DNA from: Escherichia coli
GTDB taxonomy: Bacteria; Pseudomonadota; Gammaproteobacteria; Enterobacterales; Enterobacteriaceae
Assembly (NCBI RefSeq): GCF_003334305.1
Contig: NZ_QOWS01000054.1
Length of the DNA: 2,565 bases
Strand: one strand, 5' to 3'
This document shows positions 1-2,565 of the stretch, in pieces. The notes under the pieces are model-generated. The model saw only the letters and a list, made by a program, of their open reading frames with translations, did no database searches and was not told where the DNA came from. The position numbers and the translations under genes were made by a program. Positions within the stretch are counted from its first letter, which is position 1, and each line of letters begins with the position of its first letter.

Positions 1-657
1 GAGGAGAACCCGCATCACCTGCACCAGCCGTACCGGCTGCCGGGGCAGCAGTATGATAAGGAGTCGGGGCTGTACTATAACCGTCACCGGTACTACGATC
101 CGTTGCAGGGGCGGTATATCACCCCGGACCCGATTGGGTTGAGAGGTGGATGGAATATGTATCAGTATCCGTTGAATCCCATACAAGTGATAGACCCAAT
201 GGGGTTAGATGCGATTGAGAATATGACATCAGGTGGACTAATTTATGCCGTATCTGGTGTACCTGGATTGATTGCTGCAAACAGCATTACTAACAGTGCT
301 TACCAGTTCGGTTATGATATGGATGCTATTGTTGGCGGAGCTCATAATGGGGCCGCCGATGCAATGAGACATTGTTACTTGATGTGTCGAATGACTAAGA
401 CATTTGGATCAACAATAGCTGACGTGATAGGTAAAAATCATGAGGCGGCAGGGGATAGACAAGGTCAGCCAGCTAAAGAAAGAATCATGGATCTTAAAAA
501 TAACACTGTCGGTATTGCTTGTGGCGATTTTTCTGCCAAATGTAGCGATGCATGTATTGAAAAATATAACACTGGGCAACTCTTCGGGTTAGATGGTATA
601 AAAGCAGATAATCCAATAAAAGCAAAGCAAGGGAGTTCAGATGCTTCAAATTATTAG
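1..657 (+). CDS. rhsE: Rhs-family polymorphic toxin, 3' portion (5' end lies upstream of the window): terminus of the conserved RHS core followed by a variable C-terminal toxin domain
   Basis: Frame 1 is open from nt 1 with no stop until TAG at 655-657, so the gene starts upstream; the ORF-track start at 103 is only an internal TTG. Translation from nt 1 reads [69 protein letters not shown], the hallmark end of the RHS repeat-associated core (YD repeat, then the DPxGL demarcation). The first 200 nt are GC-rich (about 60% by eye) and composition drops immediately after DPMGL, as expected at an Rhs core/CT junction. The symbol is a tentative recollection of K-12 synteny (rhsE-ydcD-yncI-ydcC), not verified. 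Confidence 0.85.
193..207 (+). other. DPxGL motif (DPMGL) marking the boundary between the conserved Rhs core and the variable C-terminal toxin domain
   Basis: Codons 65-69 of the frame-1 translation encode D-P-M-G-L, preceded by the conserved PxxxxDPxGL context ([13 protein letters not shown]). In Rhs/YD-repeat proteins this motif delimits the core from the polymorphic CT and is associated with autoproteolytic release of the CT (established knowledge of the family). An upstream DPIGL at codons 43-47 belongs to the conserved core. Confidence 0.7.
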
Positions 658-1123
658 AGGCAAACTTGTCATTTTTTTAATTACCCTTTGTTTATTTGTT
701 GTTTACCTTGGGTTTGATAACAATTCAAATTCTGACATCGTATTTTATGGACATAAAACACCAAAGAGCGTTGAGATATATCTTTCTGAAAAAAATATTA
801 TTTATAAAATAATTAATGACCAAAAAATTAGTAGAGGGAATGGTCATTTTATAAGTATAATGGTTAATAATTACAGGACGCACTGTGGAGTGGTTGATAT
901 AAATCTTAATTTTTTCAATGATATTCTTTATAGCGTGCGATTAAAAAACATTAGTAAACTGGAGAATATGGAGTTCTGCGCTAAAAAACAACGGGTGTAT
1001 TTTAGTGATAAAAACAAGAAGGCTAGTTATAAAATAATTAATTATGGAGACTATTACGATGTTGATTATTATGATAACAATTTGAAAAATGAAGTTTTTG
1101 ACTGGATTGGTAAATGGTCATAA
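641..1123 (+). CDS. ydcD: Putative Rhs-toxin immunity protein (160 aa, AT-rich, N-terminal hydrophobic segment; uncharacterised)
   Basis: ATG at 641 is preceded by a good RBS (GGGAG at 631-635, 5-nt spacer). The ORF overlaps the toxin stop by 17 nt, the typical arrangement for a toxin/immunity pair. A 160-codon ORF in DNA this AT-rich (well under 30% GC by eye) is unlikely by chance. Residues about 8-25 ([18 protein letters not shown]) form a hydrophobic stretch after a positively charged start. The symbol is a tentative recollection of K-12 synteny; immunity function is inferred from position only. Confidence 0.7.
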
Positions 1124-1202
1124 TGAACAACACCAGAAAGAGAAAAATATAAAATACATACAGAAAGACATGAGAGCAAGGGACGGGGCAGGGCAAGATC
1201 AT

Positions 1203-1230
1203 GAAAATTGTGATGTAAATCACGATTTTC
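1203..1230. promoter_or_regulatory. Near-perfect 12-bp inverted repeat with 4-nt loop (GAAAATTGTGAT-GTAA-ATCACGATTTTC); contains a CRP-like TGTGA-N6-TCAC core; could also act as a weak intergenic hairpin or terminator
   Basis: Seen directly: 1203-1214 pairs with 1219-1230 with a single G·U position. The core TGTGA (1209-1213), 6 nt, TCACG (1220-1224) matches the CRP consensus TGTGA-N6-TCACA at 9 of 10 positions. It lies in the 180-bp gap between the immunity gene and the H-rpt transposase start. The stem is AT-rich, so terminator function would be weak. Either function is speculative. Confidence 0.25.
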
Positions 1231-1259
1231 ATCTTGGCTTTAACGCCTACAGGTGATCA

Positions 1260-2480
1260 AAATTTAACCTTTGGAATAACTAAAAAGATAAAAAAGGACC
1301 CAGGTGAGTATTCAAAGTTTGCTTGATTATATTTCAGTGATCCCTGATATACGACAACAAGGAAAGGTTAAACATAAATTATCTGCTATTTTGTTTCTCA
1401 CCGTATGTGCAGTAATTGCAGGTGCCGATGAGTGGCAGGAAATTGAAGATTTTGGACATGAAAGACTTGAATGGCTAAAGAAATATGGTGATTTTGATAA
1501 TGGCATTCCGGTCGATGACACCATTGCACGCGTTGTGAGTAACATTGACAGTTTGGCCTTTGAAAAGATGTTTATTGAATGGATGCAGGAGTGCCATGAA
1601 ATCACTGATGGTGAAATTATAGCAATAGATGGAAAGACCATAAGAGGCTCCTTTGATAAGGGAAAAAGAAAAGGAGCAATCCATATGGTGAGTGCATTCT
1701 CGAACGAAAATGGTGTTGTACTGGGGCAGGTGAAAACGGAAGCCAAAAGTAATGAGATTACAGCCATTCCAGAGTTGCTTAACCTACTGTATTTAAAGAA
1801 AAATTTGATAACCATTGATGCTATGGGCTGTCAGAAAGATATCGCTTCGAAGATCAAAGATAAAAAAGCAGATTATCTTCTGGCAGTAAAAGGCAATCAG
1901 GGGAAATTACATCATGCATTCGAGGAAAAATTTCCTGTAAATGTGTTTTCTAATTATAAAGGCGATTCGTTTAGTACGCAGGAGATAAGTCATGGAAGAA
2001 AAGAAACACGTTTGCATATTGTCAGTAACGTAACGCCTGAACTTTTGTGATTTTGAATTCGAATGGAAGGGATTAAAAAAGCTTTGTGTAGCATTGTCAT
2101 TCAGGCAGAAGAAAGAAGATAAATCAGCAGAAGGTGTAAGCATCCGATATTATATTTCATCAAAGGATATGGATGCTAAAGAATTTGCACATGCTATCAG
2201 AGCGCACTGGCTGATCGAGCACAGTCTTCATTGGGTGTTAGATGTAAAAATGAATGAAGATGCCAGCCGGATAAGAAGAGGAAACGCAGCCTAAATAATA
2301 TCTGGAATAAAGAAGATGGCACTGAATTTATTAAGAGATTGCAAAGACATTAAGGGTGAAGAGGAAAAGAAAGAAGGCTGCGTTAAACACAGGGAAAGAT
2401 CATCAGAAGTTCACTTTTTGTACTAAATAATTCGCATTTTATGTTTAAAAATTGAGATATTCCTCATTACCTGAAGCTGT
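1260..2480 (+). mobile_element. Remnant H-rpt (ISAs1-family) insertion sequence; boundaries approximate
   Basis: The transposase pseudogene fills most of this span, consistent with the roughly 1.2-1.3 kb size of H-rpt elements. I could not identify convincing terminal inverted repeats by eye, so the ends are estimated from the ORF position and from the upstream homology shared with the second copy (ATAAA(A/T)AAGG before each start codon). Confidence 0.4.
1304..2426 (+). pseudogene. yncI: ISAs1-family (H-repeat / H-rpt) transposase gene, inactivated by a +1 frameshift and an in-frame stop
   Basis: Track ORF 1304-2050 (GTG start, RBS AAGGA at 1294-1298) is collinear with H-rpt transposases (…ISVIPDIRQ…GIPVDDTIARVV…AIDGKTIRGSFDK…AIHMVSAFS…KSNEITAIPELL…IDAMGCQKDIA…ADYLLAVKGNQ…). 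It stops at TGA 2048-2050 just after a TTTT run at 2043-2046. Deleting one T restores [24 protein letters not shown]…, which continues into track ORF 2094-2294 (…[29 protein letters not shown]). That ORF ends at TAA 2292-2294, where homologs have a sense codon (GNAAE…). The same frame continues IISGIKKMALNLLRDC… to TAA 2424-2426, giving about 374 codons, the expected ISAs1 transposase length. The symbol is tentative. Confidence 0.8.
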
Positions 2481-2532
2481 TTTTTATTGCTTATACATGA
2501 TCAAATACTCCTTACATAAATAAGGTGAACAA

Positions 2533-2565
2533 ATGGAACTTAAAAAATTGATGGAACATATTTCT
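2533..2565 (+). CDS. ydcC: 5' end of a second ISAs1-family (H-rpt) transposase gene, continuing beyond the window
   Basis: ATG at 2533 follows an RBS-like AAGGTG (2522-2527). The 11 codons in the window, MELKKLMEHIS, match the characteristic N-terminus of E. coli H-repeat-associated proteins and align with the pseudogene N-terminus (MSIQSLLDYIS). Only 33 nt are visible, so the call rests on the N-terminal match and context. The symbol is tentative. Confidence 0.55.
   Translation, partial: MELKKLMEHIS

Follow-up and report, generated by a model that had tools for sequence, protein, structure and literature searches.

The TAA codon at positions 2292-2294 is almost certainly a fixed G-to-T nonsense mutation, at Glu330, in a dead copy of the ISEc26 (yncI) transposase gene that carries three further lesions; those that arose after the first inactivation would have been neutral, and the TAA would have no function of its own. 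The codon lies in a 2565-nucleotide stretch of Escherichia coli DNA (hereafter, the window), the whole of which matches many E. coli chromosomes at 100% identity and the rhsE-ydcD-yncI region of K-12 MG1655 at 99.3%, differing from the latter by 16 substitutions and 2 indels, including changes at positions 1295-1299. The window corresponds to the E. coli block made up of the Rhs tip, ydcD and yncI; in K-12 nomenclature the pseudogene is yncI (b1459) and the gene downstream is ydcC. The features are listed in Table 1. The start of ydcD and the end of the Rhs tip ORF overlap by 17 nt (641-657), the usual toxin/immunity-like arrangement, and the antisense gene yncO overlaps the 3' end of ydcD and runs as far as the ISEc26 remnant, entering its left inverted repeat. 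No match was returned when the window was scanned against Rfam.

A premature stop codon in yncI is already known and is ordinary. PGAP labels the coding sequence 'ISAs1 family transposase; frameshifted; internal stop', RefSeq lists yncI of K-12 as a pseudogene, and the gene has been reported to contain a premature stop codon in MG1655 and to be intact in Sakai, where it encodes an ISEc26-family transposase (PMC11540155). In the same study, yncI showed a weak pangenome association with epithelial adherence, and according to the authors looking more closely at the gene cluster did not make clear what part it might play in adherence (PMC11540155). What is added here is the exact codon and substitution, two further lesions, the true 3' boundary and the allele frequencies. 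Beyond correct annotation the results have very little significance, as they concern a long-dead insertion sequence beside an Rhs toxin module.

Table 1. Features of the 2565-nucleotide window
Feature	Position	Strand	Basis or remark
Rhs core protein, C-terminal tip	to 657		Annotation of matching genomes
ydcD	641-1123		Annotation of matching genomes
yncO, small gene	1038-1223	minus	K-12 name; 'hypothetical protein' in NZ_CP025892
ISEc26-like (ISAs1 family) remnant, left end to truncation point	1188-2391	+	99.0% identity over 1203 aligned bases to the intact 1307-bp O157:H7 element
Left terminal inverted repeat, GCAGGGCAAGATCATGAA	1188-1205	+	Matches the intact O157 left arm; right repeat absent from the window
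ISAs1 family transposase pseudogene, as drawn by PGAP	1304-2430		Note 'frameshifted; internal stop'
First transposase fragment, GTG start, 248 aa	1304-2050	+	ORF list; NF033564, 293.5 bits
Lesion 1: inserted C, +1 frameshift after codon 246	2042	+	Intact GAA-TTTTG, window GAACTTTTG
Second fragment, shifted frame, codons ~264-329, holds HWLIEH	2094-2291	+	NF033564, 82.3 bits
Lesion 2: TAA from GAA (Glu330), G-to-T transversion at 2292	2292-2294	+	Alignment, homologues, Pfam
Last in-frame transposase stretch, IISGIKKMALNLLRDCKDIKG, codons 331-351 of the intact protein	2295-2357	+	
Lesion 3: 5-bp deletion, -5 frameshift	2354-2358	+	One GGGTG, intact tandem GGGTGGGGTG
Lesion 4: truncation junction	2390-2391	+	Alignment to the O157 3' end and to sequence upstream of K-12 yhhI
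Second ISAs1-family element, left end (K-12 ydcC/yhhI 'H-rpt' type)	2390-2565	+	Alignment with the K-12 yhhI upstream region
Second ISAs1 transposase gene, first 33 bases	ATG at 2533		

The ISEc26 remnant, its intact counterpart and its lesions

A search with the transposase segment alone returned a class of matches at 98.9% identity, annotated as 'ISAs1-like element ISEc26 family transposase', in O157:H7. In O157:H7 F8798, the intact gene is an uninterrupted ORF of 1173 nt encoding 390 aa (WP_000027427.1), in which PF13808 (DDE_Tnp_1_assoc, residues 8-94) and PF01609 (DDE_Tnp_1, residues 102-342) form the ISAs1 architecture within a single reading frame. The intact element measures 1307 bp from outer edge to outer edge (L003:2885-4191) and is bounded by 18-nt inverted repeats, GCAGGGCAAGATCATGAA and TTCATGCTCTTGCCCTGC (L003 2885-2902 and 4174-4191), that are 94% complementary. 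ISAs1 ends typically begin with CAGGG, and the left repeat in the window contains this motif. The O157 flanks read ...ACGGGG/CAGGG and CCCTG/CGGGGGG (the slash marking the element edge), with a short CGGGG match that may be a target-site duplication but could equally be due to chance or to a longer inverted repeat. The F8798 copy lies between ydcD/yncO and yafV-ivy-fadE, which is also the position in the genome type of the window (ydcD-yncO-IS-yafV-ivy-fadE).

The remnant in the window shares with this NCBI-named ISEc26 copy its position, its left inverted repeat and 99.0% nucleotide identity, and is assigned to ISEc26 by that identity. Unlike the window, the O157:H7 copy has GAA at codon 330, neither the inserted C nor the 5-bp deletion, and an undamaged 3' end that includes the right inverted repeat; it is not followed by a second ISAs1 element. 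Against the ISAs1 model NF033564 (cutoff, 70 bits), the intact copy scored 415 bits, and both fragments in the window also scored above the cutoff (Table 1), the 248-aa fragment over profile positions 1-218 and the 66 residues preceding the TAA over profile positions 240-300. The transposase ORF of the window is thus of the ISAs1 family and is broken by mutations only; compared with the intact copy, it shows four missense changes (D28A, I89M, D163Y and V360A) and one synonymous change. The K-12 ydcC gene was rejected as an intact reference because at only ~65% DNA identity it is too distant to define lesions, and the O157:H7 same-locus copy was used instead. For both haplotypes the median copy number per genome was 1 and the maximum 2, with no sign of recent activity, and the O157 copy, which is called intact here by sequence, was single-copy and at the same locus in the genomes sampled.

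Several differences were observed around the two copies. Just upstream of the GTG start codon, positions 1295-1299 read AAAAAAGGACCCAGGTG in the window and AAAAAGGACGCCAGGTG in both K-12 and O157, a difference that resembles the gain of one base paired with the loss of another, lies where the ribosome-binding region is presumed to be, and is variable within the pseudogene haplotype. In F8798, where the transposase gene is intact, ydcD is annotated as frameshifted (L003:2339-2820) and the Rhs gene lacks its N-terminus. A further relative of ISEc26, 92.9% identical, was found among the glycosyltransferase genes of an O40-type O-antigen cluster in NZ_LT883142 (L004:3000-4171), where it is annotated as 'frameshifted; internal stop'. 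This copy has AAA at the codon equivalent to the TAA, lacks the inserted C and keeps the GGG(C/T)GGGGT tandem; it therefore decayed independently.

Apart from the TAA, three disabling lesions were found in the window, namely the inserted C at 2042, the 5-bp deletion at 2354-2358 and the 3' truncation at 2390/2391. The 248-aa fragment consists of codons 1-246 of the intact protein followed by two out-of-frame codons and a TGA at 2048-2050. The 5-bp deletion looks like the product of slippage between the tandem GGGTG copies, either of which could be the one that was lost. At the truncation, ISEc26 homology stops at A2391 (approximately codon 364 of 390) and the left end of the next element (CAGGGAAAGATC...) begins at C2390, so that 2 nt are common to both elements; the sequence from C2390 reads CAGGGAAAGATCATCA.... 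The 3' end of ISEc26 that was lost, its last 99 bp, contained approximately 26 codons together with the stop codon and right inverted repeat.

Any one of the four lesions would abolish the full-length transposase, and the copy is predicted to be non-functional. Given the frameshift at 2042, ribosomes starting at 1304 would halt at 2050 and would never reach 2292, and loss of the right end would make the element immobile in cis. Nor could a transposase provided in trans mobilise a copy that lacks its right inverted repeat. The course of events would be that of ordinary pseudogene decay, in which an insertion-sequence copy loses its transposase or one of its ends, and later lesions are neutral and pile up. 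We infer that the lesions in the window accumulated neutrally in this manner after the first inactivating event and that the TAA itself serves no function.

The stop and the frameshift might instead serve programmed recoding or regulation, or the 248-aa truncated transposase might have been domesticated, for example as an inhibitor or as a DNA-binding regulator of H-rpt, leaving the downstream sequence as debris. In other IS families, truncated transposases function as inhibitors, and the 248-aa ORF retains the DDE_Tnp_1_assoc N-terminal domain and is nearly unchanged in ~2,200 genomes, with an identical product called in many assemblies (2147 member sequences). However, this near-identity among genomes is no greater than the ordinary within-species similarity of E. 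coli, and the four missense changes to one synonymous change relative to the intact copy do not suggest purifying selection. Recoding at TAA is not known in E. coli, and programmed frameshifting or readthrough was rejected because the intact same-locus copy is a single unbroken ORF and GAACTTTTG (2042) contains no slippery heptamer. We therefore regard recoding or domestication as very unlikely, and give as little credence to the specific proposal that the 248-aa fragment (1304-2050) is expressed and binds ISAs1/H-rpt ends, thereby damping transposition or affecting Rhs/ydcD expression. If such a derivative did exist, the TAA would mark only downstream debris.

The TAA codon at 2292-2294

A lone stop codon means nothing; the TAA at bases 2292-2294 is meaningful because transposase homology runs in one frame on both of its sides. 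The preliminary description had placed an in-frame TAA within the C-terminal region of the transposase, and this placement was confirmed by the one-frame translation of 2094-2426, in which the TAA is followed by a next stop at 2424-2426, and by the homology on either side. The same-frame continuation that it had reported was reproduced as a string of residues ending at that second stop, but only its first part, IISGIKKMALNLLRDCKDIKG (2295-2357), is transposase. The remaining tail, GEEEKKEGCVKHRERSSEVHFLY, comprises out-of-frame sequence and then the left end of another ISAs1 element, and is not the transposase C-terminus. The tail past DIKG is out of frame because the 5-bp deletion shifts the frame; the true continuation of the transposase past DIKG, read by hand from the alignment, is VKRKRKKAALNT and lies in a different frame. 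The stop at 2424-2426 is within the untranslated left end of the second element, and neither of the 'ORFs', 2094-2294 and 2316-2426, should be annotated as a gene.

For at least 60 bases on either side of the TAA, the DNA is the same as that of the intact O157:H7 ISEc26 gene except for a single G-to-T change, the O157:H7 F8798 same-locus copy reading GCC GAA ATA and the window GCC TAA ATA. The single substitution, GAA to TAA, that had been proposed as the origin of the codon is thus the only base difference around it, and the comparison with the same locus in a related genome, which had also been suggested, showed an intact gene with GAA at codon 330. It had further been called a second, independent inactivating lesion. 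In mutational terms it is indeed separate from the +1 frameshift at 2042; it is, however, one of four lesions rather than the second of two.

We built an alignment of the intact protein and 111 full-length homologues, which have lengths of 360-415 aa and identities of 51-81%. Among these 112 ISAs1 proteins, the residue at position 330 was Glu in 107, Gln in 3, Ser in 1 and Ala in 1, and the equivalent codon was GAA in K-12 ydcC and AAA in the 92.9%-identical copy from the O-antigen cluster. This agrees with the earlier statement that H-rpt homologues have a sense codon here (GNAAE). Codon 330 is located inside both the Pfam DDE_Tnp_1 domain (residues 102-342) and the NF033564 match (residues 29-343), 27-29 residues past the HWLIEH motif (301-306), which we take to hold the catalytic Glu of IS4-like DDE transposases. 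Judged by these alignments, the direction of change is evidently GAA to TAA. An in-frame stop with homology on both sides and a sense codon at the same place in intact relatives, accompanied by the other disabling lesions, characterizes the gene as a pseudogene.

The alignments also bear on the possibility that the TAA is the natural stop of a shorter form of the transposase and that the similarity downstream is incidental. The catalytic residues all lie upstream of the TAA, the putative third being in HWLIEH, and would be kept by a protein that ended there if the frameshift at 2042 were absent. However, no C-terminus was found before reference position 361 among the 112 full-length proteins, the earliest aligning to 361, so that the intact homologues ending at codon 330 that would, by the preliminary description, have refuted its reading were not found. 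Moreover, the residues past codon 330 are well conserved in these proteins, with A339, N341 and L343 invariant, the Pfam and NCBIfam models reach residues 342-343, and the O157:H7 same-locus copy reads through with GAA. A natural stop is accordingly highly improbable, and the TAA is best read as premature.

Allele frequencies and the order of the lesions

We counted the alleles at three of the lesions in 5,426 complete E. coli genomes. At codon 330, scored by the exact 63-mer, TAA was present in ~2196 genomes, or ~40% of the complete genomes, and GAA in ~309, the GAA examples listed being O157:H7-type genomes annotated with ISEc26. At position 2042, the inserted C was present in 2198 genomes and absent from 311, and at 2354-2358 the 5-bp deletion was present in at least 1907 genomes, a lower bound since some weak alignments were lost, with 310 genomes undeleted. 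The allele counts gave no evidence of intermediate haplotypes among the 5,426 genomes, and there are effectively two haplotypes, one fully intact and one fully decayed. Because the lesions are almost completely linked, their order cannot be read from the counts. The intact allele (GAA and none of the other lesions) marks the O157:H7-type haplotype.

The frequencies raise the question of whether the TAA could be ancestral in the lineage, the GAA of O157:H7 having arisen by back-mutation or by gene-conversion repair, as might be thought from the far greater abundance of TAA (2196 versus 309 genomes). In opposition to this, a sense codon is found in all outgroups (GAA in ydcC, AAA in the O-antigen copy and Glu in 107 of the 112 proteins), and none of the other three lesions occurs in the O157 copy, so that four independent, exact reversions would be needed, including the regaining of 174 bp. 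An ancestral TAA is thus about as improbable as a natural stop, and the evidence favors a fixed mutation from GAA in a decayed ISEc26 copy. That the TAA arose by error during sequencing or assembly of the source record can be practically dismissed, as 2196 complete E. coli genomes, each assembled independently, contain the identical 63-mer with TAA, as do four metagenome-derived contigs.

These four contigs came from a scan of species representatives in which the mutated base was left as N; the scan returned only the four short contigs, all with T at this base, and no outgroup. The contigs (DEQI01000209.1, DYWT01000153.1, JAEWTL010000046.1 and QFQM01000416.1) are 2.7-3.5 kb in length and 99.3-99.9% identical to the window, and sit in MAGs labelled Planococcaceae, Sporosarcina, Bacillota and Flavobacterium. 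The most likely reason for this match is that E. coli DNA was mis-binned or present as a contaminant.

The second ISAs1 element and the K-12 locus

The element that truncates the ISEc26 copy derives from the type represented in K-12 by ydcC and yhhI. These genes resemble ISEc26 in belonging to the ISAs1 family, in domain architecture and in the GNAAE motif with GAA, and differ from it in DNA sequence (~65% identity), in length (378 aa versus 390) and in being intact in K-12. Terminal repeats were not reported by an automatic inverted-repeat search on ydcC/yhhI-type elements; the left end was therefore placed by means of the yhhI upstream alignment, and the right end by reading the sequences. 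Relative to O157:H7 (L003:4093-4266 versus L001:~6391-7686), 174 bp are missing, comprising the 99 bp of the ISEc26 3' end and ~75 bp of flanking sequence. The arrival of the second ISAs1 element coincides with this loss and was not a simple insertion, and no remainder of ISEc26 was found downstream of the second element.

The yncI gene of K-12 (b1459), an RhsE-linked defective H-repeat/ISAs1 pseudogene, has the same inserted C, TAA and 5-bp deletion as the window, together with an identical ydcC-type junction; it is the same gene in the same haplotype. The genomes that match the window at 100%, such as NZ_CP025892, differ from K-12 in the location of the block. A segment of ~5 kb, which extends from the 3' part of the Rhs core through the toxin tip, ydcD and the decayed ISEc26 to the right end of the second ISAs1 element, is 96.7% identical between the two (L001:2621-7677 versus L002:2903-7961), and is placed in the context vgrG...yafV-ivy-fadE in NZ_CP025892 and in the context ansP-yncG-yncH...pptA in K-12. 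Since the ISEc26 lesions are identical in both contexts, the block was moved or exchanged after the decay. In the NZ_CP025892 type, the second ISAs1 element (L001:6390-7680) is itself a pseudogene, with the nonsense changes Q18* (CAA to TAA) and E206* (GAA to TAA), and the copy of the same type at K-12 ydcC is intact.
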